64,000 nt of DNA. Source: an uncultured Chthonomonadales bacterium (GTDB lineage: Bacteria; Armatimonadota; Chthonomonadetes; Chthonomonadales; CAJBBX01). Positions 35,401 to 64,000 of this stretch are shown here, piece by piece; positions within the stretch are counted from its first letter, which is position 1, and each line of letters begins with the position of its first letter. The position numbers and the translations under genes are program-made. The stretch spans positions 33,895-97,894 of the forward strand of contig CALLMM010000005.1 of NCBI GenBank assembly GCA_938005745.1, given 5' to 3'. The notes beneath the pieces are model-generated. The model made no database searches and was not told the DNA's origin. It was given only the letters and a program-made list of their open reading frames with translations.

Positions 35401-35656
35401 CTTCGATACGGATCGTCAGGGGGTTGTGATCGAGGCGATCAAGAAAGCGGAACGGGAGGACGCGATCATTGTGCGGCTGTATGAAGCCTACAACTCTCGC
35501 GGACCGGTGGTGCTGCGCACCTCGCTTCCGGTCGCTTCGGCGCATCTGTGCGACCTGATGGAGCGCGATCTGCAGGAGCTTCCGGTCGAAGAGGGAGAGG
35601 TGGAGTTCTTCGTACACCCGTTTGAGATCGTTACGATCAAACTGCGTCTCTCGTAG
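32459..35656 (+). CDS. Alpha-mannosidase, glycoside hydrolase family 38
   Basis: 1065 aa. GHAHIDTAWLW metal/catalytic motif, WLPDVFGY, NQFHDIIPGS. The minus-strand 1161-aa ORF is a shadow. Exact start (32459 vs 32492) uncertain. Confidence 0.9.
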   Translation: MFAQLNGLRYAMYKHPELTMARIERFLRNEIHPRLWSRQAPLRAEVYRPEAPAPYAHGLQGRRETGPPANAEFQPVESGFAWGPIWTDAWFRFSGAIPAEWRGEKVVARIDCGAEAIVWDGDDPKQGLDANHGEYRLTDAAQGGEPITLYVRANGMNPHVSVDAKPIVPPEKPFTFQHAFLAVYDEELWALFHDMKIAGLVMKEQPENTPRRGQLLYALNEAVNAYDPEDRASIARCRQIIAETYRKPAHASAHQISAIGHAHIDTAWLWSLERTQQKCLHTFATATRMMDEYPEYKFICSQAQQYAWVKQMAPKLYERIKEKIAAGQWEVTGSMWVEADCNISSGESLVRQVLHGKNFFLDEFGIETRDLWLPDVFGYAACLPQILKKAGIDYFLTQKISWNQINKFPHHTFLWQGIDGTRIFTHFPPADTYNAMMTPQELAYNVCNFRENDRATRSLYVYGYGDGGGGPTAEMLENARRLQDVEGMPKVTLEFARDFFEKAVEDARDLPLWVGELYLELHRGTYTTQARNKFHNRRSEFLLREAEFLACIRPEGLAAYPAQELDTAWKLVLLNQFHDIIPGSSVNEVYRDSERDYAVVRGIAEKIIAGSLASIGAAVNTVGMKMPVLVVRNYDNWAWSQHVAVPLPEGVNPQAVYYADEEEFSAEGVPMAGPVQIVEENGQRYALFEEATPDDVHGYTVYDMSEEAVELENPFEVSPRLLDNGWLRVEWDENGLISRIYDYREEREVMNPGEKGNQLQLFEDKPLFWDAWDVDIFYQEKGTVLNRLDSAEVVETGPVRAAIRQTRTFGSSRITQTIRLHAHSKRLEFVTEVDWHEERKLLKAAFPVAVNSPRATYEIQYGHVERPTHYNTSWDLARFEVAAQKWVDLSEGDYGVALLNNGKYGHDTFGNTLRITLLRAPKAPDPEADMGRHTFTYALLPHGGDLRSGEVVEQSYYLNTPPRAILLAPGQTGDQPREIGYFDTDRQGVVIEAIKKAEREDAIIVRLYEAYNSRGPVVLRTSLPVASAHLCDLMERDLQELPVEEGEVEFFVHPFEIVTIKLRLS

Positions 35657-44938: not shown

Positions 44939-46540
44939 ATGCGTTCGCTTTTTGTGGTCAATCCGCCGGCGAGACCGGGATATACGACCGAGAGGTCGCA
45001 GTCCGCCGGGATCGGCGTGTCGCGGAAACTGAAGCCCTGGGAGAAGGACTATCTGCTCCTGCCGGCTCCCGACATTCTGCTGACGGCAGCCGTCGGCGAG
45101 CAGTGCGGGCTGAAGACGGCGATCCTCGATCTGGTGCTGGAGCGTCTTTACGGGCAGAAGGCGGTGGATTTTGTCGTGGAGCGCATCCGCAGGGAGACGG
45201 GACCGGAGGATGAGGTCTGGGTCTGCGTGCGCCTCTCCATCCCGACCATGCTTCCCGACCTGCGTTTTGCCGATCAGATCAAGGAGCGTCTGCCGCATGT
45301 GCGTCTCTTCTTGATCGGTACGGTGATTATGGCGACGCTGGATAACTGGGTTGGTCAGACGAAGGCGGACGCCGTCATCTACGGCGAGCCGGAGGCGGTG
45401 GTCGGTCCGATGTTTCAGGCGGAGGGCGATGCCTGGAAGCGGCAGAAGGGGGTGATAGACCCCCGCCGCTATATTCCGCTGACCGGGGACGCGCTCTACG
45501 ACGGCTCCGCGCAGTCGCGCTTCAAGGACTGGGTGCTCGTCAAGAATCTGGCGGAGATACCCTTTCCCGCCTACCATCTGCTGCCGCTGGAGCGGTACAG
45601 CCCGACCGGAAAGACGGAGGATGTCGCGACCTACGTGACCGCCAGCCGGGGCTGTCCGATCGGCTGCACGATGTGTCCCTACATGCTGCTGGAGGGGCGT
45701 CCGCTGCGAATCAGCACGGCGGATCGGGTGGTAGATGAGATCGAGTATCTGAACCGCAACTGGGGCATCCACAAGATTCGGTTCCGCGACCCCAACTTCG
45801 GGTTCAACCGTAAGCAGGTGCGCGAGATCCTGACGAAGGTGATCGAGCGGAAGGTGAAGCTGCATGCGACCGTCGAGGTGAGCCTGGAGGTGGTGGACGA
45901 CGACCTGATCGCGTTGATGGCGAAGGCGGGCGTCCATACCATCACGACCGGCGTCGAGACCGCCGACGAAGAGTGCATGGAGAGCATCGGACAGAAGATC
46001 AAGGTCAACGACATCCTGGCGCAGAAGATCGCGCTGGCGGACTCGCTGGGAATCCATGTCTATGGAACGTTTGTGGTCGGTTCGCCGGAGGAGAGCTGGG
46101 AGACGGTGGAGAAGACGATCAACTACTCCAAACAGCTTGCGTGCGAGTGCGCCTTCACGGTGATGACGCCCTTCCCCGGCACGCCCCTCTACTATCGGGC
46201 GATACAGGAGGGGCTGCTCGACAAGGAGATGACCTACGAGAAGTGGAACAGTTACACCGCGACGGTGCGCTCACGCTTTCTGACGGCGGAGGACCTCGAT
46301 CTGGCGCGTCTGTGGGCGCGTCTGGAGTTGATCATCCCCTACCGCATTAATCGAGCGCGCAAATATGGCGTCAAAGAACTGATCAAGACTCATATCAAGA
46401 TGCTCCCCCGCCGTCTGGCGCTGATCTATGTGCGCGCCCGGGTGGCTGCCCGGAGGCGGAGAGGCTCACCGATCGTGAATATGCCGGAGAATATGACCAA
46501 GCCCATCGAGAAGATCCCGCTGGCGGCAAAAGGCGAGTAG
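44939..46540 (+). CDS. B12-binding-domain radical SAM protein (class B)
   Basis: 533 aa. N-terminal Rossmann-like B12-binding region, then YVTASRGCPIGCTMCPY (CxxxCxxC cluster). Confidence 0.85.
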   Translation: MRSLFVVNPPARPGYTTERSQSAGIGVSRKLKPWEKDYLLLPAPDILLTAAVGEQCGLKTAILDLVLERLYGQKAVDFVVERIRRETGPEDEVWVCVRLSIPTMLPDLRFADQIKERLPHVRLFLIGTVIMATLDNWVGQTKADAVIYGEPEAVVGPMFQAEGDAWKRQKGVIDPRRYIPLTGDALYDGSAQSRFKDWVLVKNLAEIPFPAYHLLPLERYSPTGKTEDVATYVTASRGCPIGCTMCPYMLLEGRPLRISTADRVVDEIEYLNRNWGIHKIRFRDPNFGFNRKQVREILTKVIERKVKLHATVEVSLEVVDDDLIALMAKAGVHTITTGVETADEECMESIGQKIKVNDILAQKIALADSLGIHVYGTFVVGSPEESWETVEKTINYSKQLACECAFTVMTPFPGTPLYYRAIQEGLLDKEMTYEKWNSYTATVRSRFLTAEDLDLARLWARLELIIPYRINRARKYGVKELIKTHIKMLPRRLALIYVRARVAARRRRGSPIVNMPENMTKPIEKIPLAAKGE

Positions 46541-48890: not shown

Positions 48891-50390
48891 ATGAAGCCGT
48901 TCTCCTCTACTAACTCCTCTGTCCGCCCGAAGCCTCTGCAAAGCGCCGCCTGGCGGGCTGCGTGGATTCTGCTGCTGTGTCTGACCGCTTCGCCTCTCTT
49001 TGCGCGGGAGGGCGCGCGCGAGAGACAGGCGACGCTGTCGGAGCATTGCGAGCGCATCCTGTCCGATCCAGGTCTGAAGGGCGGCTTTCAGGGGGTCTCT
49101 ATTGTGTCGCTGCGGGACGGGCGTACTCTGTATGCGCACAATGAGGATACACTGTTTCTGCCCGCCTCCAGCCAGAAGCTCATCACCTCCGCCGCCGCGC
49201 TCGACGCGCTCGGTCCGGACTGGCGGTATGTGACGCGGGTACTGCGCGCCGGCACGGTGGACCCGGACGGAACGCTGCAGGGCGATCTCTACCTTCAGGG
49301 ATCGGGAGATCCTCTGCTGGAGACAGCGGACCTGGATGCGCTGGCGCAGGCGGTGAAACGGGCGGGAATCCGGCGAGTTCGGGGCTGGGTCTTCGGCGAC
49401 GGCAGTCGTTTCGACCGTCAGCGGTACGGACCGGGCTGGGAGTGGGACGATATGCCTTTCTACTACGCCGCCCCGGTCAGCGGTCTTAACCTCAACAAGA
49501 ACCTGGTGCGGGTGGAGGTGAAGCCGGGGATGCGTGTCGGCGATCCGGTGCAGGTCGTGGTGGAGCCGGAGACGATGCGCGTGCTGGTCTCCGTGCGCGC
49601 CAGGACGGGAGAGAAGGGGACTTCCTCCACGCTGACGATCGGTCGGGAGACCGGCAGGAGCGTGATCACGGTGGAGGGAACGCTGGCGATAGACGCGCAG
49701 CCCGGAGCGCAGACCTCGCAGGCGGTGACGGTGGAGGAGCCGGCTCTCTATGCGGCGGAGCTGTTCCACCAACGCCTGAAGGCGGCGGGAGTGGCGGTAG
49801 AGGGGCTGTCCGGCGAAGGCGTAACGCCCGTCGGGGCGGCGGAGATCGCCCGGCATGAGAGCCTTCCGCTCTCCGCGCTGCTCGCGCGTCTCAATAAACC
49901 CAGCGATAATCTAGTGGCGGAGTGTCTGCTGAAGACGCTGGCGGCGGAGAGGACCGGACAGGGCAGCTGGAGCAACGGGCGCAGGCTGGCGACGGAGCGG
50001 CTGATCGGCATGGGTCTGCCGTCAGACGGCTTTCGTATTGCGGACGGCTCCGGGCTTTCCCGTCACAACTATCTGTCGGCGCGCAGTATGACGCGGCTGC
50101 TGGAGGCGATGTATCGGCGCCCCGATGGCAAAGCGTTCATTGACTCTCTGCCGATTGCGGGAGTGGATGGTACGCTGCGGAACCGGATGCGGGAGACGCC
50201 CGCCGCCGGAAACTGCCGTGCCAAGACCGGAACCATGTCCAGCGTCAGCAGTCTGTGCGGCTATGTCGTCACGAAGCGGGGCGAAACGCTGGCATTTGCG
50301 ATCCTGATGAATAACCATCCCTCCAACGAGCAGGCGCGGATCGCGCAGGACAGGATCGCTGCGCTGCTGGCGGAATGGGATGAAAAATAG
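48891..50390 (+). CDS. dacB: D-alanyl-D-alanine carboxypeptidase/endopeptidase (PBP4, peptidase S13)
   Basis: Signal peptide. PASSQKL (SxxK), DGSGLS (SxN-like), KTGT motif. Confidence 0.88.
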   Translation: MKPFSSTNSSVRPKPLQSAAWRAAWILLLCLTASPLFAREGARERQATLSEHCERILSDPGLKGGFQGVSIVSLRDGRTLYAHNEDTLFLPASSQKLITSAAALDALGPDWRYVTRVLRAGTVDPDGTLQGDLYLQGSGDPLLETADLDALAQAVKRAGIRRVRGWVFGDGSRFDRQRYGPGWEWDDMPFYYAAPVSGLNLNKNLVRVEVKPGMRVGDPVQVVVEPETMRVLVSVRARTGEKGTSSTLTIGRETGRSVITVEGTLAIDAQPGAQTSQAVTVEEPALYAAELFHQRLKAAGVAVEGLSGEGVTPVGAAEIARHESLPLSALLARLNKPSDNLVAECLLKTLAAERTGQGSWSNGRRLATERLIGMGLPSDGFRIADGSGLSRHNYLSARSMTRLLEAMYRRPDGKAFIDSLPIAGVDGTLRNRMRETPAAGNCRAKTGTMSSVSSLCGYVVTKRGETLAFAILMNNHPSNEQARIAQDRIAALLAEWDEK

Positions 50391-52224: not shown

Positions 52225-52830
52225 ATGAAAAGTACGACGCTGCGCCAGGACGTTCGCGATTCGATACTGGATGCCGCTGAGCGGCTGTTCCGGCGATATG
52301 GCTATAAGAAGACGACCATAGACGATCTGGCGCGGGAAGCCGGGATCGGCAAGGGAACCGTCTATCTCTATTTTGACAGCAAGGAGAGCGTGGCGCTCTC
52401 GGTGGTTGATCTGGAGTTTGATCGCATCCGGGACCGGCTGCAGAGGATCGGTCGTTCGCGCGGACAGCCCGCCGCCCGGCTCCGTCAGATGCTGGTAGAG
52501 CGTGTGATGCTGCGTTTTGATGTGGCAGCAGGCTACTCGCAGACTCTCGACGAGGTGTTCAGCAGCGTTCGCATTCCGTTCCTGGAGCGTCGGGAACAGT
52601 TTTTAAAGATCGAAGCGCAGGTCTGTGCGGAGGTTCTACTGGATGGCAGACAGCGGGAGATCTTTGAGTTTGAGGATGCTCTAGAAACCGCCATGCTGCT
52701 GATGCGCGCAACCGGTTCGCTGCTTCCTCTGACGCTGACCCCGCATCAGATGAGCCGCCGTGAAGAGATACAGGAGACCGCCGGACAGATCGCGGACCTG
52801 CTGCTTCGCGGTCTGCTGAAACGCGGTTAA
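52225..52830 (+). CDS. TetR/AcrR family transcriptional regulator
   Basis: N-terminal HTH (ILDAAERLFRRYGYKKTTIDDLAREAGIGKGTVYLYF). Confidence 0.88.
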   Translation: MKSTTLRQDVRDSILDAAERLFRRYGYKKTTIDDLAREAGIGKGTVYLYFDSKESVALSVVDLEFDRIRDRLQRIGRSRGQPAARLRQMLVERVMLRFDVAAGYSQTLDEVFSSVRIPFLERREQFLKIEAQVCAEVLLDGRQREIFEFEDALETAMLLMRATGSLLPLTLTPHQMSRREEIQETAGQIADLLLRGLLKRG

Positions 52831-52940: not shown

Positions 52941-53582
52941 ATGCCCATGCTACACGACATGGTCCCCCCGGAGAACGAGAATGGCTGCGCCCGGCAGCAG
53001 GAGTTCGAGGCGCTCTATCGTAGAAACCGGCAGAGAGCCTACAACCTCGCCTATCGCCTGCTGGGTAACCGCGCGGAAGCCGAGGACGTTGCGCAGGACG
53101 CCTTCGTGCGCGCATGGCACAGTTTTGCTCAGTACGACCGCGCGCGACCGTTTGAGAGCTGGCTGATGCGGATCGTCACCAATCTGGTGATTGACCGGCG
53201 CCGCCGCCAGAAGCGGGTGAACATCTGTTCGCTGGACGCTCCCGCCGCCTCCGGCACGGACGGCTCCTCCATGTTGCTGGAGCTTCCGGACTCCTCGCGG
53301 GAGCCGGAGAGCCTGCTGATGGCGGGCACCTATGAGGAGTCGCTGCAGCAGGCGCTGTCGTTGCTGCCTCCCCGCTATCGCGAGCCGGTGCTGCTGGCGG
53401 ATGTAGAGGAGCTGTCCTATGAGGAGATCGCCGCGCTCCTCAACTGTCCGGTCGGCACGGTTCGCTCCCGGATCCATCGCGCCCGTCTGATGCTGCGCGA
53501 TACGCTGATGGGCAACGCCTCCCGGCGTCGCAGGAAGGGAGGCGCGGTCAGCCATAGCGCGGCGTCCCCGGTGCGCGCATAA
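52941..53582 (+). CDS. ECF-type RNA polymerase sigma-70 family factor
   Basis: Region 2 (AEDVAQDAFVRAW...FESWLMRIVTNLVIDRRR) and region 4 (LSYEEIAALLNCPVGTVRSRIHRAR). AAGGAG Shine-Dalgarno. Confidence 0.88.
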   Translation: MPMLHDMVPPENENGCARQQEFEALYRRNRQRAYNLAYRLLGNRAEAEDVAQDAFVRAWHSFAQYDRARPFESWLMRIVTNLVIDRRRRQKRVNICSLDAPAASGTDGSSMLLELPDSSREPESLLMAGTYEESLQQALSLLPPRYREPVLLADVEELSYEEIAALLNCPVGTVRSRIHRARLMLRDTLMGNASRRRRKGGAVSHSAASPVRA

Positions 53583-53966: not shown

Positions 53967-54036
53967 CCCCTCTCTTCTCTCTCTCCTCTTCCCTCTCTTC
54001 CCCCAACGGAGGCGTTTTCTCTCCCCTCTCTTCTCT
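53967..54036. repeat. Polypyrimidine (CT-rich) low-complexity tract
   Basis: 38-nt pure C/T run (53967-54004) and a 22-nt C/T run (54015-54036), preceded by a purine-rich stretch GGAATAGAAGTGAGGAGTAAGAGG. Confidence 0.8.
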
Positions 54037-54135
54037 AGTGTGAAGGAATCCCCCCAAGGAACAGATAATCTCTCCTCTGTAGAAGAAGTGCGATTCCAAA
54101 AGGACGGTCGCACTGCTATATAACCGAGGGGAAAG

Positions 54136-55104
54136 ATGTATCCAGAGACCACAGACACTCGTGAAGATGCCCTCCCTTTCTCACTTCTGCCTTCGGTACC
54201 CTCCTTTGCCGGACATCAGACATTTCCTTTTCGATCTGGATGGCTTAAAAAAGGGTTAGATGCGCTGCAATCTCCTGAGTTGGGAGTAGGCGCGCTGTTT
54301 ACGCGCGAGGATGCTCTGACCATCCTAGGGGTCGGCAAGAATATGACGCAGAGTATTCGTCACTGGCTGCTGACAACACGCATGGCTTGCGAGCGAACTA
54401 CTGGGACAAGACGTACCCTTGAACCAACAGCTCTGGGGAAAGCGGTTTTTGGCTCTCCGGAAATGGAGGGTTTCGATCCCTATCTCGAAGATGACTCCAC
54501 GCTTTGGCTATTGCACTGGATGCTCACCGGACCGGGTAGTTTAGCTTTTACATGGGTATGGGCTTTCCACTTCTTTCGAGAATATGAATTCACCAGAGAG
54601 TCCTTAACTGACGCGATCTATAACGCTGCCCATAACCGTATCACGAAACCTCCCTCTCGTGAAACCGTTGGTCGTGATGTGCAGTGTTGCCTACACACAT
54701 ACATTACGACTGAGCCCAGCGCAGTTCTTGAAGATACCCTCGACCGTCCACTAAACGCCCTCAATCTGATTCTGCCAAGATACGCGATGCACTATCGGTT
54801 TCAGATTGGAGCCAAGCATACGCTGCCTACGGCGATATTCTGTTACGCCCTGTTGGAATTCTGGCAGTGGAAGCATCCTCGTGCAGATACGCTCTCCCTG
54901 TGGGAAATTGCACACGCACAAGGCAGCCCCGGCGTGGCGTTTAAGCTTGACGAAGACTCGGTTCTGGAGTACCTCGACGAGATTGAAATGACAACGCAGG
55001 GAGCCTGGAGATTCGAAGATACGGCGTTGGTACGGCAGGTGGTGCGCACGAGCCTGCAGCCACTCAACGGGCTACTTCTCTTGCAGAGACACTATCATGG
55101 ATAG
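54136..55104 (+). CDS. DUF4007-family protein (SspB-like component of phosphorothioation-type systems)
   Basis: 322 aa. N-terminal FAGHQTFPFRSGWLKKG motif that I recognise as the DUF4007 signature. GAGGGGAAAG Shine-Dalgarno. Its 3' end overlaps the next gene by 8 nt. Confidence 0.75.
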   Translation: MYPETTDTREDALPFSLLPSVPSFAGHQTFPFRSGWLKKGLDALQSPELGVGALFTREDALTILGVGKNMTQSIRHWLLTTRMACERTTGTRRTLEPTALGKAVFGSPEMEGFDPYLEDDSTLWLLHWMLTGPGSLAFTWVWAFHFFREYEFTRESLTDAIYNAAHNRITKPPSRETVGRDVQCCLHTYITTEPSAVLEDTLDRPLNALNLILPRYAMHYRFQIGAKHTLPTAIFCYALLEFWQWKHPRADTLSLWEIAHAQGSPGVAFKLDEDSVLEYLDEIEMTTQGAWRFEDTALVRQVVRTSLQPLNGLLLLQRHYHG

Positions 55105-58100
55105 ACCTGTCTTCCTAGCTGATGTGATTGAGGTACGCAGCCGTTTCCAGCGTTCTGTACACCTGGAGCGAGACTACAACACCTGCGCAGATGGTTATCA
55201 TCCCACTGAGTCAGCTCTTCAAGCGCTGCGAGCCGTAGACCGCGCTCTGGGCTATCCGACAGATCGGGCAATGACCCTGATCGGGCCCTATGGCGCGGGG
55301 AAGAGCGCCTTTTGCGTTCAACTTGCGCATCTGCTGGAGCATCGCACGTTCCAGCCCTGGCTGCAGGCGGCAGGTTCGCTAAATGGCAGCCTGGCACGAC
55401 TCTTTCAGAGTGACGATCGCGCACTCATCCCAATACTCCTCGTCGGTTCGCGCCAATCGCTGGCGTCAAGTTTGACAGCAGCGCTTACGCAGGGACTGCA
55501 GCGCCGCAGTCATGTTCGGCTGCTGGAACATCTGAAGAGAGAGTCGGAGGCGTTAAGATGTCCTGCGCCTTCCCCGCGTCAGACGGCAGATCTATATCAT
55601 ATGGCGGCATCTCATGCGGTGCTAGAGGGAGCGTACGGAGTTGTCTTGATCGTTGATGAGATGGGCAAATTCCTTGAGCATGCGGCGTTGCATCCACAAG
55701 AGGGCGACATCTTCGTACTTCAGGAACTGGCGGAAGCAGCGGCGAGAAGCGGTGAACATCCCCTCATTGTGATGACGGTTTTGCATCAGAGTGCAGAAGC
55801 CTATGCTCAGAAGTTAGGTCGCACATTCCAGGCAGAGTGGTCGAAAATCGGCGAACGTTTCCGACAGATCGCATTTTTCCCTTCCGATATGGAGAGGATC
55901 GAAATGGTCGGGCTCGCCTTAAAACAGAACAACGACCTGCATCGCGACGCGATCGTAGAACGTCTGAGCCTGCTATGTGTAGAACGGAAATTGACGCCAC
56001 CGGGTTTGGAGGAACGGTTTCCTGCGCTCGCCTGTGCCGCCTACCCCCTGCACCCAGTCTCGCTGCTGACACTTCCGGCGCTCTTTCGCAAGATCGGGCA
56101 GAGTCACCGCAGCCTCTTTGCTTTCCTGTCCGGTGATGAACCGCACGCGCTCGGTCGTTTTCTTCGCGAAACGCCCTATGTATCAGACAGCCCTCCCCTC
56201 TATATGCCGGACTCAGTCTTTGATTATGCGGCGGAGGCGCTTCGAGGCTCTTGGAACGCCCCGGGAGCTGCGCGGTTATGGGCGGAAGCGGTAGACACAG
56301 TAGACCGTGCCTTCGACCTCCCGGAACTTCCAAGGCGAGTTCTGAAGGTGATTGCTCTGCTGGGGATCCTCAAAGACCCGCGTCTGACCCCCTCTCAGAG
56401 TACTCTGGAGTGCGCGTTGACAACCGGTAGCGGCGAATACCCTGACATTTCTGATGCGCTTTTGGAGCTTCAGGAACGCCGACTCATCGTCTACAGCCGC
56501 ACGTACAACACCTACCGACTGTGGGAAGGCGGGGATGTGGATATCGAGGCAGAGATGGCGGCTGCACGCGCCGCGCTGCCGGCAGGAATCTCCCTGCACG
56601 TCGCCTCAAACCTGTGTCCGCCGCCCAAACTGATTGCACGCAGACACTCCTACGAGACCGGTACCGTTCGCGCCGTCACGTCGGTCCCCTGCGGAGTGAT
56701 GGATTTGAAAAAAACGGCTGCGGAGCATTCTTCTCAGCTAACCGTGTTGTTGTGTCTGGTGACTTCGCAGGAGGAGGTGGAGCAGGCAGAAACGACTGCA
56801 CGATCCTGTGATCAGTCGCAGACACTTATCGCCATTGCTCGCGAGACCGATACCTTGCGAGAGGCGGCGCAGGAGATTGCAGCTGCACAACGTGTTGCAC
56901 AAGAGACCCCTGGACTCGCCTCTGACCGTGCTGCGCGCCGTGAACTGGCTACGCGACGACAAGAGGCGGAGACGGCGTTCCGTCAGGAGTGGAACCGTCT
57001 CTTCATGCCGGATCAAAAAGCGCGCAGTGAAACGTCGTGGTTTTACCAGCGCCAGCGAATAGAGATAGTAGGTACGCGGAAATTCTCGGCGCATCTGTCC
57101 CGCATGGCAGATCTAACCTTTCCAGACGCCCCGCGTCTACGCAATGAGCTGATCAACCGCCAGACTCTCTCTTCGGCGGCGGCGGCAGGACGCAGAGAGC
57201 TGATCGAGGCGATGCTGACTCATTCAGCAGAGCAACGTCTCGGCATTCGGGGCTTTCCCCCCTCTGCTAGTATGTACGAGTGTCTGTTACGGGCAACAGG
57301 GATCCATCAGGAGGTGGCGCCAGGACGATGGGGTTTCGCATCTCCCTCCAGAGCTCCCCTGTCAGACCCTGCGCGTCTGCTCCCATGCTGGCAAGCGTTA
57401 GAGAGGATGATCTTCCGTGAGCCTCCAGAGCCGCGACCGCTGCGAGAGGTCTATGCCGCGCTCAGTGCGCCTCCGTATGGCATCACTGCCGGGGTAATGC
57501 CGGTACTGTTGTGCGCTTTCCTTCTGGCTCACCCGGACGAGACGACCCTCTACCGGGAGGACACATTCATCGCGGAACCTACTACTGCGGACTGGGAGGT
57601 GCTGCTTCGACGACCGGAGCTTTTTGCCGTTGCCGGATGCCGGGTGAGCGGCGATCGGGCGGCGGTCGTGCAGCGTCTGGCGCGGGGGTTGAAGTGCGCG
57701 CCGGCGCTCGTGCCCGTTGTCCGTGCGCTGTTACGTATGGTTCGCAGTCTGCCTGAGCACTCCTGGAAGACACGGCGCCTGCCCGAGCATGTGTTGGCGT
57801 TGCGCGATGCGATGCAGCGCGCCCGATCCCCCGAAAGCCTGCTGTTTCGCGATCTGCCCGCCGCTTTGGGCATCATCGTGCTCTCTGGTCAGGAGGTAGA
57901 CGACGCACATGTAGAGGAGTTCTTTCGGGCGCTGAACGCCGCCCTGCAGCAATGGAGCCGCGCTACCCCGGATGTAGTTGCTCAGGCGCGTGACGCCCTG
58001 CTGCTGGCATGCGGACTGAATCCTGGCAGCGCGGGGTTCCACACGCTGCGTGAGCAGGCGGCTGTGATGGAGCCGCAGGTAATGGACCCGCGACTACTGC

Positions 58101-58465
58101 CCCTTGTTCGACGAGCCGCACAACCGGGTGACGATCAAACGGTACTTGAGAGCGTTCTTGCGCTTGTCGCCGACCGTCCTCCCCGTACCTGGACAGACGC
58201 CGACGCCGACCGCTTCCATGCGCAGACGAAAGCGATCGGGGCAGTTTTCCGGCGGGAATGGATGCGGGCAGAAGAGTTAGCATCCTCATCCTTGTCGCCG
58301 GATGAGGAGACGCATAGCCGGCAGCTACTGGAGAGCCTGCGCCAGTACCTGAGGACACAACCAGCCTATGCACAGATGCCACCCCGCGTTCTGCGCGCTG
58401 CCCTCTCGGCGCTATTGCAGGAGGTGGACCGTAACGAAATGAATGAAGGAGTACAGACCGAGTGA
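55097..58465 (+). CDS. Large P-loop ATPase, SspC / BrxC(PglY) / DUF499-like
   Basis: 1122 aa. Walker A LIGPYGAGKSAF, Walker B VVLIVDEMGKF, downstream YPLHPVSLLTLPALFRKIGQSHRSLFAFL motif typical of BrxC/DUF499-type ATPases. Confidence 0.75.
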   Translation: MDRPVFLADVIEVRSRFQRSVHLERDYNTCADGYHPTESALQALRAVDRALGYPTDRAMTLIGPYGAGKSAFCVQLAHLLEHRTFQPWLQAAGSLNGSLARLFQSDDRALIPILLVGSRQSLASSLTAALTQGLQRRSHVRLLEHLKRESEALRCPAPSPRQTADLYHMAASHAVLEGAYGVVLIVDEMGKFLEHAALHPQEGDIFVLQELAEAAARSGEHPLIVMTVLHQSAEAYAQKLGRTFQAEWSKIGERFRQIAFFPSDMERIEMVGLALKQNNDLHRDAIVERLSLLCVERKLTPPGLEERFPALACAAYPLHPVSLLTLPALFRKIGQSHRSLFAFLSGDEPHALGRFLRETPYVSDSPPLYMPDSVFDYAAEALRGSWNAPGAARLWAEAVDTVDRAFDLPELPRRVLKVIALLGILKDPRLTPSQSTLECALTTGSGEYPDISDALLELQERRLIVYSRTYNTYRLWEGGDVDIEAEMAAARAALPAGISLHVASNLCPPPKLIARRHSYETGTVRAVTSVPCGVMDLKKTAAEHSSQLTVLLCLVTSQEEVEQAETTARSCDQSQTLIAIARETDTLREAAQEIAAAQRVAQETPGLASDRAARRELATRRQEAETAFRQEWNRLFMPDQKARSETSWFYQRQRIEIVGTRKFSAHLSRMADLTFPDAPRLRNELINRQTLSSAAAAGRRELIEAMLTHSAEQRLGIRGFPPSASMYECLLRATGIHQEVAPGRWGFASPSRAPLSDPARLLPCWQALERMIFREPPEPRPLREVYAALSAPPYGITAGVMPVLLCAFLLAHPDETTLYREDTFIAEPTTADWEVLLRRPELFAVAGCRVSGDRAAVVQRLARGLKCAPALVPVVRALLRMVRSLPEHSWKTRRLPEHVLALRDAMQRARSPESLLFRDLPAALGIIVLSGQEVDDAHVEEFFRALNAALQQWSRATPDVVAQARDALLLACGLNPGSAGFHTLREQAAVMEPQVMDPRLLPLVRRAAQPGDDQTVLESVLALVADRPPRTWTDADADRFHAQTKAIGAVFRREWMRAEELASSSLSPDEETHSRQLLESLRQYLRTQPAYAQMPPRVLRAALSALLQEVDRNEMNEGVQTE

Positions 58466-59286
58466 ACACGCCTGAACCGACCTTAGCCAAGCCTGTACGA
58501 CATATCCTCTCCCTCTCCGGAGGAAAAGACAGCACCGCCCTCGCTATCTACATGCGCGACAAAGTGCCACAGATGGAGTATGTGTTCTGTGATACTGGCG
58601 AGGAGATGATAGAGACATATGAATACCTTGATAAATTGGAAGCTTATCTAGGATGTTCGATTACACGCCTGAATCCTGAAAGACCGTTCAATCATTATCT
58701 TGAAATTTATCGCGGTGTTTTACCTGACGCCAGGACAAGATGGTGTACCCGTATGCTCAAAATTAGGCCTTTTGAGAAGTATGTTGGCGACGACCCGGTC
58801 ATCAACTATATCGGGATCCGCGCCGATGAGAACCGCAAAGGGTACCTCTCCAGCAAGCCCAATATTCAGGCGCGCTATCCCTTCATCGAAGACGGCATTC
58901 GTAAAGAGGATGTGATGCGCATTCTGGAGGAGAGCGGACTCGGTCTACCGGACTACTACCGGTGGCGTTCACGTTCGGGATGCTACTTCTGTTTCTTTCA
59001 ACAGAGAATTGAGTGGGTTGGGCTTCTGGAGAATCATCCCGATCTGTTCGAGAAAGCACATATGTATGAGAAATTCGATTTAGCATCAGGAAAGCGTTAT
59101 ACTTGGTGTCAAAAGGAGAGTCTTCGAGAGTTATCGGATCCAGCCAGATTGGCACAAATCAAAGCTGATTATGAGAAACGAATCTCAGACCAGCAACGGT
59201 TCAAAAGCGGTCGTTCGTTAGGGGAAGTTCTGTCTGATGAGGAAGAAGCAGAATTTGAAAGAGCCTGCCTGATTTGTGAATTGTAG
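58462..59286 (+). CDS. PP-loop ATP pyrophosphatase, PAPS-reductase fold (DndC/SspD-like)
   Basis: 274 aa. SLSGGKDS PP-loop. GTG start overlaps the ATPase stop (GTGA). C-terminal cysteines (SGCYFCFF, CLICEL). Markedly AT-richer than the rest of the window. Confidence 0.8.
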   Translation: MNTPEPTLAKPVRHILSLSGGKDSTALAIYMRDKVPQMEYVFCDTGEEMIETYEYLDKLEAYLGCSITRLNPERPFNHYLEIYRGVLPDARTRWCTRMLKIRPFEKYVGDDPVINYIGIRADENRKGYLSSKPNIQARYPFIEDGIRKEDVMRILEESGLGLPDYYRWRSRSGCYFCFFQQRIEWVGLLENHPDLFEKAHMYEKFDLASGKRYTWCQKESLRELSDPARLAQIKADYEKRISDQQRFKSGRSLGEVLSDEEEAEFERACLICEL

Positions 59287-59321
59287 CCTAAATGAGATAT
59301 TAAACCTACCAGGAGAATTAC

Positions 59322-59566
59322 TTGATTTTAGACGATCTAAATAGATTTTGGGCTTCCATAAACAAGCTGAAACGGGGTAGTCAGTCAGGGAGGCTTAAGC
59401 CGCACAAGCTCGCATGCTACTAGCTGTCCTTGACCTCGCGGAAGACGGGTTTATGAAAGAGAATCGGATATATTATGACGAGGCATTGATCGCACGCTTC
59501 AAGCGTAACTTCAGGCTTCTATCCGATAGGTCGGATTGATGTCAACCTGGTCCCCCGTTTTTTCAC
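59322..59566 (+). pseudogene. Disrupted 5' part of the next gene: DNA-reading head domain (PHK..LLLAVLDL / PFFHL..DFWH type) broken by a frameshift and an in-frame TGA
   Basis: AGGAG Shine-Dalgarno, 6 nt, then TTG at 59322 gives LILDDLNRFWASINKLKRGSQSGRLKPHKLA and stops at TAG 59421. The sequence continues in the -1 frame from about 59415 as (M)LLLAVLDLAEDGFMKENRIYYDEALIARFKRNF...SD, then TGA 59537-59539. It continues in the same frame as CQPGPPFFHLRTSDFWHH into track ORF 59567..60574. Confidence 0.6.
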
Positions 59567-60574
59567 TTGCGCACATCGGATTTCTGGCATCACAAGATAA
59601 AACCCGATCGGCTGGAAGAATATTCTATGTTGGACACGAGTGGAGGTGTTTCCAAACGCACAGTTGACAATATCGAGTATGCCTATTTAAGCGACTATGC
59701 TTTTGCCTGCGTCCTAGATCCCGATAGTCGTCAGATTATCCGACAAAACATCATGAACATCAACAAGTTAGCATTAGCTTTCAACGAAACACTTCCCTTC
59801 AGAAGGTCTTCACTCTCACAAGTTTTGAGAAAATACTCTACTGGTGGAAAAATTACATTCGAAAAACTGTGCAATCATACCACACTAGGTACCAGTGAAG
59901 TTAAAGCTGTTCGAAGAATTTCATATGGCACAGGTTTGATTGATCAATATCATCAGATCACTCCCTTTGGAAAGGTTGTTACAGAACACGATCCAAACTT
60001 CAGTCGAGAATCGACCCAATGGCTCCTGCACTATCATATGTGTGCGCCGCACCGTACCGGTCCGGCGTTCTGGCACCATCTGGTAACGACTCAGCTTCAC
60101 CTCGGCGATGAGCTGAGCTCGCGACAGGTCGCGGAGAGTATACGGGAGTTCTCTCTGCAGGCGGGAGAGAAGGAGCTGAAGTTCGAAACCTACCAGCAGG
60201 CGGCGACGATTTTCCTCGGAACCTACAGCAGTCCGGACGGACTGGGAGACCTGGGCATTCTGAAGCGTGGGGAGGGACCGGCGGTCTATAAGGTTACTCA
60301 GCCGGAGCTGCCCGCGCCGGAGGTTGTCGCCTATGTCGTCGCGGACTACTGGGAGGGCGTATGGCCAACTCTGCTGAGCATAGACTTCAGCCAGTTGACC
60401 GGTGCGGAGGGACCGGCGGCGCTCCTTCTGATGAGAAGCGGCGACATGTTCGAGATGCTGCGTAAGATGCAGGCGGATCACCTGATCCTGCTGGAGCGCG
60501 CCACCCGTCCCTGGAAGGTGAAGCGGCTGTGGGGAGATACACATGAGCTTCTCGAGCGGGTCTTCGCACGATAA
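59567..60574 (+). CDS. DUF4007-like protein (paralog of 54136..55104), possibly the surviving part of an interrupted gene
   Basis: Central region LGTSEVKAVRRISYGTGLID...ESTQWLLHYHMCAPHRTGPAFWHHLV parallels LGVGKNMTQSIRHWLLTTRMA...DSTLWLLHWMLTGPGSLAFTWVWAF of the first DUF4007 protein. It lacks the FxGHxTFPFR N-terminal motif. A functional start, if any, could be TTG 59567 or ATG 59627. Confidence 0.55.
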   Translation: MRTSDFWHHKIKPDRLEEYSMLDTSGGVSKRTVDNIEYAYLSDYAFACVLDPDSRQIIRQNIMNINKLALAFNETLPFRRSSLSQVLRKYSTGGKITFEKLCNHTTLGTSEVKAVRRISYGTGLIDQYHQITPFGKVVTEHDPNFSRESTQWLLHYHMCAPHRTGPAFWHHLVTTQLHLGDELSSRQVAESIREFSLQAGEKELKFETYQQAATIFLGTYSSPDGLGDLGILKRGEGPAVYKVTQPELPAPEVVAYVVADYWEGVWPTLLSIDFSQLTGAEGPAALLLMRSGDMFEMLRKMQADHLILLERATRPWKVKRLWGDTHELLERVFAR

Positions 60575-61043
60575 CCTCTCTGCCTCGGAACTGGTGCAGC
60601 GTCTGCGAAGCCGTACCCTGCGCAATCGTACCGGGATCCTGCTTCTGCCCCCAACCGCGCTCCAGCAGATTGAGGACATCGCGGCAAGGCTGGGGATTCA
60701 GTCTGTTGACTACCGAAGGCTGGTACTGCAAAGAGTGCCGCCGGGCTCCCGCTACGCCGGCATTAGTGTTGATGCGGAGCGGCAGACCATTGACGCGCTT
60801 TTAGAGGACACGCTGGGAAAAGACTGCGTTCTGCTCTACTATCTTGACCTGATCCTGGCGCGTCTGGAGTACGCAGAGCGGCAGCGTCTCTGGACTATTC
60901 TATTTCGTGAGACGTCTAACCGAAGCCGCGCCCTCGTGTTGGCAATGCCCGCAACGGCGAAGCATCTGCTGCCCTCAGCAGATGCGCTGTGTGATTGGAA
61001 GAAGGATGCGCGCGTCGCACTTTACGCCTCCGAACGTCCATAA
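60543..61043 (+). CDS. Hypothetical 166-aa protein of the second module
   Basis: ORF only. Overlaps the preceding gene by 32 nt and ends 10 nt before the next ATG. No family recognised. Confidence 0.45.
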   Translation: MSFSSGSSHDNLSASELVQRLRSRTLRNRTGILLLPPTALQQIEDIAARLGIQSVDYRRLVLQRVPPGSRYAGISVDAERQTIDALLEDTLGKDCVLLYYLDLILARLEYAERQRLWTILFRETSNRSRALVLAMPATAKHLLPSADALCDWKKDARVALYASERP

Positions 61044-61053
61044 CATCCCTATC

Positions 61054-64000
61054 ATGAGGCTGACCGACATGTTAATTAAAGAGATCGTATCACATGACAG
61101 TTTTGCCAACTTTGAAAACGACGTTCAGATCGGCTGGTACCCGAAAGATCCTCGGAACCTACGTATGGTGGAGAGCTACATCTTCACCAACCAGGCGACA
61201 CAGGGGAAGAAATCGTCGCTGGAGATCCTGGATCTGATCCGGCTCTCCTACATCCACAGTCGGGAAAACCGCTTTGTGGTGATGGCGACATATGGTCACG
61301 GCAAAAGCCACCTTGCCCTGACCATGGCCAACTTTTTCGGTCAACCTGCCGACTCACCGGAGGTTCGCGCTATTCTGGGCAAGATTGAGCACTGTTCTAG
61401 CCCTTCGCGCGCACAGGGGTTCCGGGACTTCAAGGAGGGAAACGCCCCGTTTCTCGTCGTGCGTCTGCGCGGAGACAAAGCACCTAAGCTGCCGCAGCAG
61501 TTTCTGCATGGTCTGCAGACCGCCCTGCATGAGCAGGAGGCGACCCGCGATGCGCACCTGCCCTTCTGGTTCGAGCAGGCTGCCGGTTATCTGCAAAAGA
61601 TACAGGATAACTCTCATCAGCTCGCTGCAGCCAACGCCTTTCTGGAGCGGCAGTCCCAGCATCCCTCCATTCGTGACGTCCCGGCGCTTCTGCGGGAAGT
61701 GCAGAACAGCAACCCGTCGGTGCATGAGCTTTGCCGATCGCTCTCAGCAGAGATGAACCATGGCGTGCCGCTGGACTTCGGGGGATCCATAAGCCTGCAG
61801 TATGCGCTGGAGCGGGTTGTAGACGACTATTGCGGTACAGGCAAACCCTACCGTGGCATACTGATCCTATTCGACGAGTTGAGCGCTTTTGTGCGCGACT
61901 ACGCGCAGTCGTCTGGAGTGGGACATGGCAACGCCCTGCAGGATATCCTCGAAGGGGTACGCAACCGTCTGGGACGCGCAACCTTCGTCGCCTTCTCACA
62001 ACACGACCCCCTGGAGACCGCCGAAAACTTCTTCAAGATAGGCACTGCTTCGCATCAACGTGAGACGCTGATGCATCAACTGCAGCGGCTGCCTAAAGAC
62101 CAGAAATACCAGCTCTACTCCTCGCTGGAAATGGTGCTGGACTCCTACCTGAAACAGGAGGAGACTGGTTGGGAACTCCTTTGTGAACAGGCGAGCGATG
62201 CGCTGGATAAAGCGAGCGGCGTCACTATGAACCTCTTCCAGGATCGGTACAATCATGCGCAGGGATGGGACCTTGAAGATATTGACGAGATTCTGACCAA
62301 AGGCTGCTTCCCGCTGCATCCGCTTACGACCGCCCTGCTATGCAGCGTTGAGTTTCGCGAGGTTACCAGTCCGCGCTCCGTACTTGGTTTCCTGCAGGAG
62401 GCTCTCAGCCGATGGGGCGACCAGCCTGCATTGAAAGGCAGCGCCCCCAACTGGCTCTATCCCGTCGAGCTAGTGGACTGGTTTGGCGAGATGCTGGCGG
62501 ATGAGGAGTACCAGCAGTATCGCAGCGCCTGTCTCTCCGCGGGTGCGGATGTCACACCGGAGCAGACCGCCATCCTGAAGGCGATGCTGCTGCAGAGCGT
62601 GGCAAGGTTGAGTACCGAGCGCTATCGCCACTTGCAGCTCATGCATCTGCTGACCGGTCTACCAGAAAAGCAGTGTCAGCAGGCGTTGGAGGGGCTAAGC
62701 AGCCGCCAGGTGATCCGCTCGGACGAGAGCGCCTTCTCCTTCTGGCCTCCAGGCGTAGACGGCAGCCGCCTCGAGCAGGAGGTCAATCGGATCGTTCAGA
62801 CACGCATTTTCAACCTCAACGTTCTGGAGAATATCAATCGGGATTGGCAGGCGAGCCGATTGCAGGCTATCCGGGTAGATGCTCTCTCCTGGGCTAACGA
62901 TGCTGACTTCTCCGCCCGTCAGATTCTGGTCACTCACGAAGCCTTCTCGCCGGAGTTTCTGCGTAGACAGATCAAGACTTTCCGAAGCTCCGGAGACCTG
63001 GACACTCCCCGCGGCTTTGTGTTCTGGCTAGTCGCTCAGACCCACGATCAGATTCTGGACTACATCGAACGGGCGGAGCAGGTGCTGGAGGAGGCGTTAA
63101 AGGGGATAGAATCTCCTCCCCCCGTTCTGATTGGGGTGCCTGAAACCCCTACTCCAGAGTTCGAAAAGCTGGTACTGAAGGAGGATGTCATCAACAATCT
63201 TCCGCAAAATATCATACGCAACTCCGACTCGTCGGTCCTCTTTCAAATGAAAGAGGACTACAAAAAGAGGGTGTCTGCTGCTCTGACAACTCTTAAGGAG
63301 AAAGCGGACTTCCACGTACCCCTTCGCTACCGATCGCACGTCAAAATCCGATCTCCCCACAGACGCTGCGAGACCATGCTGCCAGCCTGTTATGAAGCCG
63401 CCTACCGACTGGGTCCGCCAGCGTTTCGTAAGCAGACACCTTTCACAAATCCGTCTCTGCGCAAGGCGGTTGGATTACTTGCCGAAGGGCTATCCAAAAA
63501 CAACCTCCACTTGCCCGAGCATGCATGGCGCAAAGACAAAGTCGCCGATGAGATTATGAATAAGTTTCTGCGTATAGGTGGGATCTCCTCGTGGAGACTG
63601 GTCGGCGCGGACTACGCGGTGTGCGAGCCGGGTGACGCTAACATACGCGAGGCATGGGACTACCTGAACCGTCATTTCGAGCCAGGCAAAGGCGCTGTGC
63701 CGATCCGGGACGCCGTCCTGACACTGATGGATCCTCCCTACGGCTACGACCCGAACCATGTGACCCTGCTTCTGTCCGCCTGGTACGGCTATCACCGGCA
63801 CGAAGTAAAGCTGCGCGAGGATCACTGCTACACAACGCTGGACACTCTCTTCAAGCACCCCTTCAAGACGGAGGATTTCCTGAAACGACTCCTGGACCGG
63901 ATAAATACCCTCTATATCGAAAGAGTGGATCGGGGTGAGACGATCCGACAGGCGGAGAAGCTCGCGAATATGGTCGTTAAGGGAGGCAAAAAATTCACTC
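61054..64000 (+). CDS. Second large P-loop ATPase, BrxC/PglY/DUF499-like (3'-partial, runs off the window)
   Basis: Not in the ORF track because no stop is reached. I translated 61054 to 64000 by hand and found no stop (more than 980 codons). Motifs: MVESYIFTNQ, Walker A VMATYGHGKSHLAL, Walker B GILILFDELSAF, CFPLHPLTTALLCSVEFREVTSPRSVLGFL (paralogous to the YPLHP motif of 55097..58465). Start is ATG 61054 or ATG 61069 (GAGG 8 nt upstream). Confidence 0.7.
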   Translation, partial: MRLTDMLIKEIVSHDSFANFENDVQIGWYPKDPRNLRMVESYIFTNQATQGKKSSLEILDLIRLSYIHSRENRFVVMATYGHGKSHLALTMANFFGQPADSPEVRAILGKIEHCSSPSRAQGFRDFKEGNAPFLVVRLRGDKAPKLPQQFLHGLQTALHEQEATRDAHLPFWFEQAAGYLQKIQDNSHQLAAANAFLERQSQHPSIRDVPALLREVQNSNPSVHELCRSLSAEMNHGVPLDFGGSISLQYALERVVDDYCGTGKPYRGILILFDELSAFVRDYAQSSGVGHGNALQDILEGVRNRLGRATFVAFSQHDPLETAENFFKIGTASHQRETLMHQLQRLPKDQKYQLYSSLEMVLDSYLKQEETGWELLCEQASDALDKASGVTMNLFQDRYNHAQGWDLEDIDEILTKGCFPLHPLTTALLCSVEFREVTSPRSVLGFLQEALSRWGDQPALKGSAPNWLYPVELVDWFGEMLADEEYQQYRSACLSAGADVTPEQTAILKAMLLQSVARLSTERYRHLQLMHLLTGLPEKQCQQALEGLSSRQVIRSDESAFSFWPPGVDGSRLEQEVNRIVQTRIFNLNVLENINRDWQASRLQAIRVDALSWANDADFSARQILVTHEAFSPEFLRRQIKTFRSSGDLDTPRGFVFWLVAQTHDQILDYIERAEQVLEEALKGIESPPPVLIGVPETPTPEFEKLVLKEDVINNLPQNIIRNSDSSVLFQMKEDYKKRVSAALTTLKEKADFHVPLRYRSHVKIRSPHRRCETMLPACYEAAYRLGPPAFRKQTPFTNPSLRKAVGLLAEGLSKNNLHLPEHAWRKDKVADEIMNKFLRIGGISSWRLVGADYAVCEPGDANIREAWDYLNRHFEPGKGAVPIRDAVLTLMDPPYGYDPNHVTLLLSAWYGYHRHEVKLREDHCYTTLDTLFKHPFKTEDFLKRLLDRINTLYIERVDRGETIRQAEKLANMVVKGGKKFT

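Follow-up and report, generated by a model that had tools for sequence, protein, structure and literature searches.

Type 4 bacteriophage exclusion (BREX) systems are made up of BrxP, BrxC, PglZ and BrxL, and in them phosphorothioate (PT) chemistry replaces methylation by PglX (Goldfarb 2015, as cited; PMC12914056, PMC12839542). BrxP is a fusion of SspD and SspB, the type 4 BrxC is a homologue of SspC, and in B. salyersiae brxP and brxC suffice for PT synthesis (PMC12914056). A cysteine desulfurase has been counted as the sixth type 4 component, and cases in which the PAPS-reductase and DUF4007 proteins are unfused have also been assigned to type 4 (Rakesh et al. 2026, PMC12839542). In the same study, a BrxB-like component fused to the N-terminus of PglZ was seen in only 64% of the taxa with type 4 BREX. 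Operons of sspBCD close to brxCZL genes have been mentioned for 40 genomes (Yuan et al. 2026, PMC12914056). The locus considered here lies at the end of a 64-kb stretch of DNA (the window) from an uncultured Chthonomonadales bacterium, contig CALLMM010000005.1. It is likely that this region forms the first three quarters of a single eight-gene, PT-based defence operon of the BREX type, in which a writer arm, sspB-sspC-sspD, is joined to a BREX-like effector arm. Judged by its sequence, the locus is a coherent sub-form of the known type 4 BREX class rather than a system of a new kind, with a predicted function.

The window covers the locus from 54136 to its last base at 64000. A public contig, L001, is identical to it base for base over all 13,458 common bases (window coordinate = L001 coordinate + 50542) and extends the locus past the window end, through the rest of the last gene to pglZ, brxL and an ECF sigma gene. 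Three genes of the second module are designated 'a' (encoding a diverged SspB paralogue), 'b' (a 166-aa protein) and 'c' (a diverged SspC paralogue). All six open reading frames (ORFs) listed in an earlier note, which was made from the letters of the window alone, are present where it placed them; that note had also guessed that a PglZ might follow beyond the window end, and pglZ is indeed the next gene on L001, followed by brxL. The features are as follows.

54136..55104, + strand: sspB, DUF4007 protein of the PT writing module (Pfam DUF4007, E 7e-74; PADLOC SspB, 1.5e-86)
55097..58465, + strand: sspC, 1122-aa P-loop ATPase of the PT writing module (PADLOC SspC, 9e-298, whole profile)
58462..59286, + strand: sspD, PP-loop sulfur-transfer enzyme of PAPS-reductase fold (PADLOC SspD, 6e-116; PAPS_reduct, 1.6e-13)
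59322..59752, + strand: decayed sulfur-binding domain (SBD), a PT-DNA reader domain, its 3' part in frame with 'a' (profile of intact homologues against 8H0L)
59753..60574, + strand: 'a', DUF4007-like, BrxA-like protein with multiple winged helix-turn-helix (wHTH) domains, assigned to the BREX-like arm; alternative starts at 59627 and 59567 (Pfam DUF4007, 4e-13)
60543..61043, + strand: 'b', 166-aa P-loop-like protein without Walker motifs, in the BrxB position (AlphaFold2 model and gene position)
61069..64000, + strand: 'c', first 977 aa of a 1404-aa SspC/BrxC-like ATPase, ending at window-equivalent position 65283 (L001, PADLOC SspC and hhalign)
65288-67486, window-equivalent (L001 14746-16944), outside the window: pglZ, 732-aa PglZ (PADLOC PglZ PDLC02549, 7e-78, full length)
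67503-68927, window-equivalent (L001 16961-18385), outside the window: brxL, 474-aa BrxL (PADLOC BrxL, 9e-208; BrxL_ATPase, 1e-92; BrxL_N, 4e-18)

The profile matches of the first three proteins bear out the SspB/SspC/SspD architecture that the earlier note had assigned to the first module. The translation of sspC contains a Walker A motif (GPYGAGKS), a Walker B motif (VDEMGK) and the sequence YPLHP, and SspD carries the PP-loop SGGKDS. The three genes overlap by 8 nucleotides (nt; sspB/sspC) and 4 nt (sspC/sspD). SspC also matches a full-length PADLOC BrxC model, PDLC02478 (1e-197), and is, by sequence, the predicted equivalent of BrxC in canonical type 4 BREX. SspD matches the BrxP model of PADLOC at 1.3e-8, over only 166 residues of a 779-position profile.

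The DUF4007-like proteins of the two modules, and likewise their ATPases, had been described in the earlier note as recognisable paralogues. Pairwise alignment, which it had proposed as a check, is marginal when taken alone (BLAST E 0.002 both for SspB and 'a' and for SspC and 'c') and becomes decisive with family profiles. When alignments of each family, built from related loci, were compared profile against profile by hhalign, the 'c' family matched SspC with a probability of 99.7% (E 4.8e-27), colinearly over 804 columns, and the 'a' family matched SspB with the same probability (E 5.8e-27) across 269 columns, essentially the whole length. The 'a' family profile also matches the solved SspB structure 6JUF (1.3e-8). 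An AlphaFold2 model of 'a' (pLDDT 88) can be placed by Foldseek on the SspB crystal structures 6JUF and 6LB9, with template modelling (TM) scores of 0.62-0.68 and an E-value of 8e-9. Walker A (GAGKS in one family, GHGKS in the other), Walker B (DE) and PLHP...RS..FL are invariant or nearly so in the SspC and 'c' families, confirming across both alignments the common motifs seen earlier in the two ATPases. Thus 'a' and 'c' are diverged paralogues of SspB and SspC.

The organization of the locus is widely conserved. A species-level scan of 185,579 genomes, one per species, gave 147 loci, of which 80 were retrieved and analysed; genes were counted by searching the ORFs of these 80 loci with the eight locus proteins, SspB to BrxL. 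In 41 of them sspB, sspC, sspD, 'a', 'b', 'c', pglZ and brxL occur in this order on one strand, spread over at least eight phyla, and most of the remaining loci are interrupted by contig ends. Carriers are found in Armatimonadota, Chloroflexota, Acidobacteriota, Deinococcota, Planctomycetota, Bacteroidota, Cyanobacteriota, Desulfuromonadaceae and Heliobacteriaceae, the closest relatives being Armatimonadota metagenome-assembled genomes. A cysteine desulfurase gene follows brxL within about 50 nt in 34 of the 80 loci, including 28 of the 41 complete ones, and its product matches Aminotran_5 (1e-84) and the PADLOC DndA/SspA models (about 1e-147); the genes for PT synthesis therefore bracket the BREX-like genes. 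Pfam and PADLOC searches found no methyltransferase inside the cassette, nor among the eight genes of the present locus. In seven Nostocales loci ssp genes are absent and dndD stands beside a-b-c-pglZ-brxL, accompanied by dndC in six of the seven. The conserved pattern argues strongly for one functional unit, and the Nostocales loci suggest that Ssp and Dnd can each serve as the PT writer for the BREX-like arm.

The proteins of the second module are more difficult to recognize. 'a', 'b' and 'c' are not detected by any BrxA, BrxB or BrxC model of PADLOC 2.0 or Pfam, and their database homologues are all labelled hypothetical or DUF4007. The ORF at 59567-60574 matches DUF4007 weakly, and members of the 'a' family share a start that aligns with the ATG at 59753, residue M43 of a 315-aa ORF. 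The ORF running from 61054 to the window end matches SspC profiles (5.5e-20) and no BrxC model of PADLOC. On L001 'c' begins at 61069, compared with 61054 in the earlier note; its first 700-1000 residues match the PADLOC SspC profiles colinearly (2.5e-20), whereas the full-length 1404-aa protein has no PADLOC or Pfam match whatsoever, probably because of a C-terminal coiled-coil tail. This tail, of about 400 aa, is absent from SspC, and its PDB matches are to fibrinogen-like chains only. At least 450 proteins of the collection searched belong to the 'c' family, all of them unnamed or without an informative function name. The Walker A (ATYGHGKSH) and Walker B (FDE) motifs of 'c' do not vary. 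Some homologues of 'c' (P0011, P0015, P0023-P0026 and others) reach 1600-1880 aa, against about 1400 aa typically, and contain an extra region.

No match to 'b' was found in Pfam (35 homologues, E up to 5), PADLOC, NCBIfam or a PDB sequence profile, and the protein has no sequence relatives beyond its own family. It lies between 'a' and 'c' in 48 of the 80 loci and, in diverged forms, in 13 more. Its AlphaFold2 model (pLDDT 88, pTM 0.83) is a five-stranded alpha/beta/alpha domain, without a Walker A motif or a C-terminal helical bundle, and the top Foldseek matches are the AAA+ cores of NSF, FtsH, ORC and RFC (E about 3e-4, query TM score 0.45-0.5). Of the two proteins encoded beyond the window, PglZ falls slightly below the 25-bit cutoff of the Pfam PglZ model (2.6e-5, 24.7 bits), and BrxL is short, consisting of BrxL_N and an ATPase domain, with a length that allows no C-terminal protease domain.

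Between sspD and 'a' lies the remnant of an SBD. A profile of intact homologues from eight loci matches PDB 8H0L, the structure of SBDHga, with an E-value of 1.1e-37. SBDHga binds PT DNA, its sulfur cavity being formed by H25, K26, L75, P76 and H79 (PMC10602919). In the HMMER alignment its 'PHK' and 'LPYYH' are aligned with 'PHK' and 'PPFFH' of the profile, and the H, K, second P and H at cavity positions are invariant in the eight intact homologues. A separate SBD gene of about 165 aa is present between sspD and 'a' in 9 of the 80 loci, and in two others, from an Armatimonadota genome (L018) and a Hymenobacter (L044), the domain is fused in frame to 'a' to give a protein of 422-423 aa. Among the 120 listed database homologues of 'a', at least 11 are 407-457 aa long and span the remnant-containing ORF of the window. 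Most related loci lack an SBD, which is therefore regarded as accessory; in the relatives that have one, it probably reads the PT mark directly, as its sequence suggests.

In the present genome this domain is a pseudogene. A 1-nt deletion is found right after the PHKL codons, at about 59412, and the codon for a conserved Trp has changed from TGG to the stop codon TGA (59537-59539). The window ORF that starts at TTG 59567 retains only positions 89-155 of the SBD profile and none of the sulfur-cavity residues, and the segment of the 'a' ORF made up of the remnant is modelled with low confidence. The earlier note had taken the N-terminal part of this ORF for a DNA-reading head; it is the C-terminal part of a broken SBD, with none of the cavity residues, and a true DNA-reading head on 'a' is ruled out here. 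Sequencing error was also considered as the origin of the lesions and is ruled out, as the same lesions occur in an independent assembly that differs at 26 single-nucleotide polymorphisms.

Compared with canonical type 4 BREX, the locus has the same PAPS-reductase domain, DUF4007 domain, SspC-like ATPase, PglZ and BrxL, often with a desulfurase in its relatives. The match of SspC to the BrxC model has a counterpart in PglZ: the PglZ of Abditibacterium, a member of this family, is included in the type 4 BREX PglZ alignment of Rakesh et al. 2026, together with those of Hymenobacter, Anaerolinea, Thermomicrobium and Deinococcus (PMC12839542). The differences are that SspB and SspD are separate proteins rather than a BrxP fusion, and that the canonical four-gene core has one DUF4007/ATPase pair, whereas 41 of the 80 loci have 'a', 'b' and 'c' in addition. 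These extra genes, for a second DUF4007 protein, a Walker-less P-loop protein and a 1404-aa ATPase, are placed between the writers and pglZ, and relatives of this locus add the SBD. For this reason the locus is no gene-for-gene match to textbook type 4 BREX. Equally, the earlier note's statement that it fits no canonical layout was too strong, since such loci have already been filed under PT-based type 4 BREX (PMC12914056, PMC12839542). In the literature consulted, no description was found of the doubling of the DUF4007 protein and the ATPase into a writer pair and a diverged effector pair, the stand-alone inactive P-loop protein, the recurrent SBD or the exchange of Ssp for Dnd.

Type 1 BREX (brxA-brxB-brxC-pglX-pglZ-brxL) offers a parallel to the order of the effector genes, which in both cases appear to specify a wHTH DNA binder, an inactive P-loop protein, an AAA+ ATPase, PglZ and BrxL. 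It differs in that PglX is missing here, BrxL is short and PT would be written by a separate three-gene module. BrxB has been described as an inactive STAND NTPase, and BrxA shares a multi-HTH fold with DUF4007 (PMC12839542); BrxA is also structurally related to SspB (PMC9240713). No Pfam match to BrxA (DUF1819) or BrxB (DUF1788) was obtained for 'a' or 'b' (35 'b' homologues, E up to 5), and the predicted 'a' and 'b' proteins resemble BrxA and BrxB in fold class and gene order only. On its model, 'b' may nevertheless be a stand-alone form of the BrxB-like component of type 4 BREX.

With SspABCD-SspE and SspABCD-SspFGH (Xiong 2020, as cited; Wang et al. 2021, PMC8092258) the locus has in common the SspB/C/D writer set and the arrangement of a PT writer beside a restriction partner; here, however, the partner is BREX-like. 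The possibility that SspE or SspFGH is the partner was rejected: PADLOC gave no match to them among the eight locus proteins (the presence of such models in the library was not checked), and the gene content is unlike the published description. An SspH-type FtsK-like C-terminus was likewise not seen among the locus proteins. The SBD of the relatives is a close homologue of SBDHga and is thereby related to the PT-dependent restriction enzymes ScoMcrA, SprMcrA and Hga (PMC10602919). Unlike in those enzymes, it is not accompanied by a nuclease domain, being either stand-alone or fused to the DUF4007-like protein, and it is found in a system whose own DNA would be expected to carry PT.

The following mechanism is proposed. 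As predicted from their homology with tested systems, SspB, SspC and SspD would mark host DNA with PT at specific sequences, the sulfur being supplied by a cysteine desulfurase encoded elsewhere in the genome. 'a' would be a DNA binder of SspB fold, similar to BrxA, and together with the SBD, where this is intact, would read the state of modification; 'b', placed where BrxB would be, would serve as a STAND-like adaptor without activity of its own, and 'c' as the active AAA+ ATPase, similar to SspC and BrxC and ending in a coiled coil. BrxB, BrxC and PglZ form the core complex in type 1 BREX (PMC13326643), and by analogy 'b', 'c' and PglZ may constitute an effector core with which 'a' and the short BrxL assemble. 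Such a complex would check DNA for the PT mark and block the replication of unmarked phage DNA, assisted by BrxL. This picture of the effector arm draws on its anatomy and on type 1 BREX biochemistry, and in it the duplication of the DUF4007/ATPase pair would separate writing from exclusion. The arm may act on unmarked DNA, in the manner of BREX, or be switched on by PT sensing, in the manner of SspE. The suggestion in the earlier note of a modification arm and a cognate sensing or restriction arm derived from it fits these data, given the strict co-linearity and the presence, in relatives, of a PT-reading SBD on the second arm.

The genes might instead belong to two independent systems that are mere neighbours in a defence island, SspBCD being an orphan module and the rest an incomplete BREX without a methyltransferase. 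Defence genes do cluster, the GC content of the island is lower and patchy (0.49-0.61 against about 0.63), a gap of 280-466 nt, containing the SBD remnant, parts two blocks of translationally coupled genes, and Yuan et al. warn that neighbouring systems may act independently (PMC12914056). The recurrence of the same order and strand in 41 loci from at least eight phyla makes this very improbable, as do the desulfurase that comes after brxL in 28 of these 41, the consistent lack of a methyltransferase belonging to the BREX-like arm inside the cassette, the dnd genes that adjoin it where ssp is missing, and the joining of a PT reader to this arm. Rather less remote, yet still improbable, is a scheme in which 'a' and 'c' are a second PT-writing pair that uses the common SspD to write a second sequence specificity, with PglZ and BrxL as sole effectors, as in canonical type 4 BREX. 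It would account for the true paralogy of 'a' and 'c' with the writers SspB and SspC and for the intact ATPase motifs of 'c', and it recalls the sufficiency of brxP and brxC in B. salyersiae. The loci, however, have no second PAPS-reductase, and Nostocales cassettes with 'a', 'b', 'c', pglZ and brxL exist without any SspD. In addition, the coiled-coil extension of 'c' has no equivalent in SspC, 'a' is repeatedly joined to a domain that reads PT rather than one that writes it, and the place of 'b', flanked by 'a' and 'c', is exactly that of brxB, flanked by brxA and brxC, in type 1 BREX.

A different kind of alternative, unlikely but to be taken more seriously than these two, is that the operon of this genome is a decaying, non-functional relic, which would be compatible with a joint writer-effector operon in the family as a whole. 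The SBD frameshift and nonsense codon are present in the window and in both Logan assemblies. A sister assembly, L002 (SRR27723350), which is 99.87% identical over 20.5 kb and is the second of two public contigs, with L001, to encode the 166-aa 'b' protein, has a 1-nt insertion at window position 61338 (L001 10796) that splits 'c' into ORFs of 106 and 1274 aa; this may reflect decay at the population level or an assembly error. No cysteine desulfurase is adjacent on the contig, in contrast to the 34 related loci that have one, the gene after brxL on L001 encoding an ECF sigma factor. Against this, sspB, sspC, sspD, 'a', 'b', 'c', pglZ and brxL are full-length with conserved motifs, the SBD is missing from most related loci and hence accessory, and housekeeping desulfurases commonly stand in for SspA or DndA (PMC12914056, PMC12839542). 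Judged by sequence, the locus may either work without its accessory SBD or be beginning to decay.

Several observations weigh against a single PT-based operon of writer and effector arms. A tblastn search with an SspA-like query detected no cysteine desulfurase in the 64-kb window. The pseudogenization of the SBD, and the split of 'c' in the sister assembly, may be signs of decay of the system in this lineage. L069, at least, has no PT writer within the retrieved DNA although its flanks are ample. BrxA is not among the Foldseek matches of the 'a' model, nor BrxB among those of 'b', no BrxB or BrxC structure having come up in the PDB copy searched; 'b' may be a counterpart of BrxB by fold class and gene position, with no sequence match and a TM score to AAA+ proteins of about 0.5. 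Finally, a search of the literature turned up no experimental work on this sub-form.

A more general proposal, offered tentatively and with rather more doubt than confidence, is that a-b-c-pglZ-brxL is a portable, PT-reading BREX effector arm that plugs into single-strand (Ssp) or double-strand (Dnd) writers, the SBD and 'a' forming its mark-reading head. One obstacle to understanding how BREX blocks phage is that BrxC and its partners act in host modification as well as in restriction (PMC13326643); type 1 and canonical type 4 BREX rely on a single set of proteins for the two. Here the tasks appear to be divided between paralogous pairs, with SspB/SspC for writing and 'a'/'c' for exclusion, and in relatives a sulfur reader is found on the exclusion arm, so that clean separation-of-function experiments should be possible. 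On this proposal, with writer and reader/effector functions on separate paralogous proteins, the question of self and non-self in BREX would become genetically dissectable. In a 2021 survey, no restriction partner was known for about 85% of sspBCD loci (PMC8092258), and the a-b-c-pglZ-brxL cassette would be one such partner. For annotation, it is relevant that PADLOC 2.0 and Pfam miss 'a', 'b' and 'c' as BREX proteins.

The island is situated in the chromosome, with no obvious mobile element. Upstream are a TetR gene (52225-52830) and an ECF sigma gene (52941-53582), and the ECF sigma gene downstream is at L001 18720-19361; the two sigma factors are only 29% identical, and a recent duplication of the sigma factor around the insertion can therefore be dismissed. 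The low GC content of the island, measured over 54000-64000, compares with 0.60-0.67 in most other 2-kb bins of the window (lowest 0.588) and reaches its minimum over sspD and the SBD remnant; low and uneven GC is consistent with horizontal acquisition. No flanking direct repeats marking an insertion site were found, and promoter-like and terminator-like sites were no more frequent than in shuffled sequence. The surrounding region is rich in glycoside hydrolases, and its chromosomal genes include the following.

132-2672: GH2 glycosidase
32459-35656: GH38 alpha-mannosidase
44939-46540: radical SAM protein
48891-50390: PBP4-type D-Ala-D-Ala carboxypeptidase

Variation among the related loci extends to individual genes and their neighbours. 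In Abditibacterium utsteinense LMG 29911 (L012) sspC and sspB run on the other strand, and neither sspD nor 'a' or 'b' was found at the locus. Further cultured carriers are Levilinea saccharolytica KIBI-1, Hymenobacter piscis NST-14 and Fibrella aquatica GW2-5. In Stenomitos and Leptolyngbyales (L066, 15438-20180; also L067 and L071) PglZ is about 1580 aa long and has an N-terminal Ser/Thr-kinase-like region that matches the PADLOC models mad6 (7.5e-95) and PglW (4.8e-62), which by sequence would be a feature of type 2 BREX or MADS grafted onto a PT-linked cassette. Directly upstream of 'a' in five loci, four cyanobacterial and one from Acidobacteriota, there is a gene for an endonuclease-like protein of about 465 aa with HTH_3 and HNH_4 domains (L080, 7242-8639; L053, L060, L061 and L074), an arrangement that recalls the mcrA-like gene found within the type 4 BREX operon of B. 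salyersiae. Nineteen loci, both Ssp- and Dnd-linked, are flanked by a gene for a protein of 485-717 aa with the S-adenosylmethionine (SAM)-methyltransferase-like motif FDYGCGQGGD (for example L071, 1092-3245, - strand). This protein has no significant Pfam or PADLOC match, its gene is not found at the present locus, and the methyltransferase noted by Yuan et al. next to the Fischerella cluster may be the same protein. At the present locus, some 210 nt past brxL and ahead of the ECF sigma gene, two 16-nt arms form a perfect inverted repeat around a 4-nt spacer (L001 18597-18632; window-equivalent 69139-69174), which could be a terminator stem or an operator.

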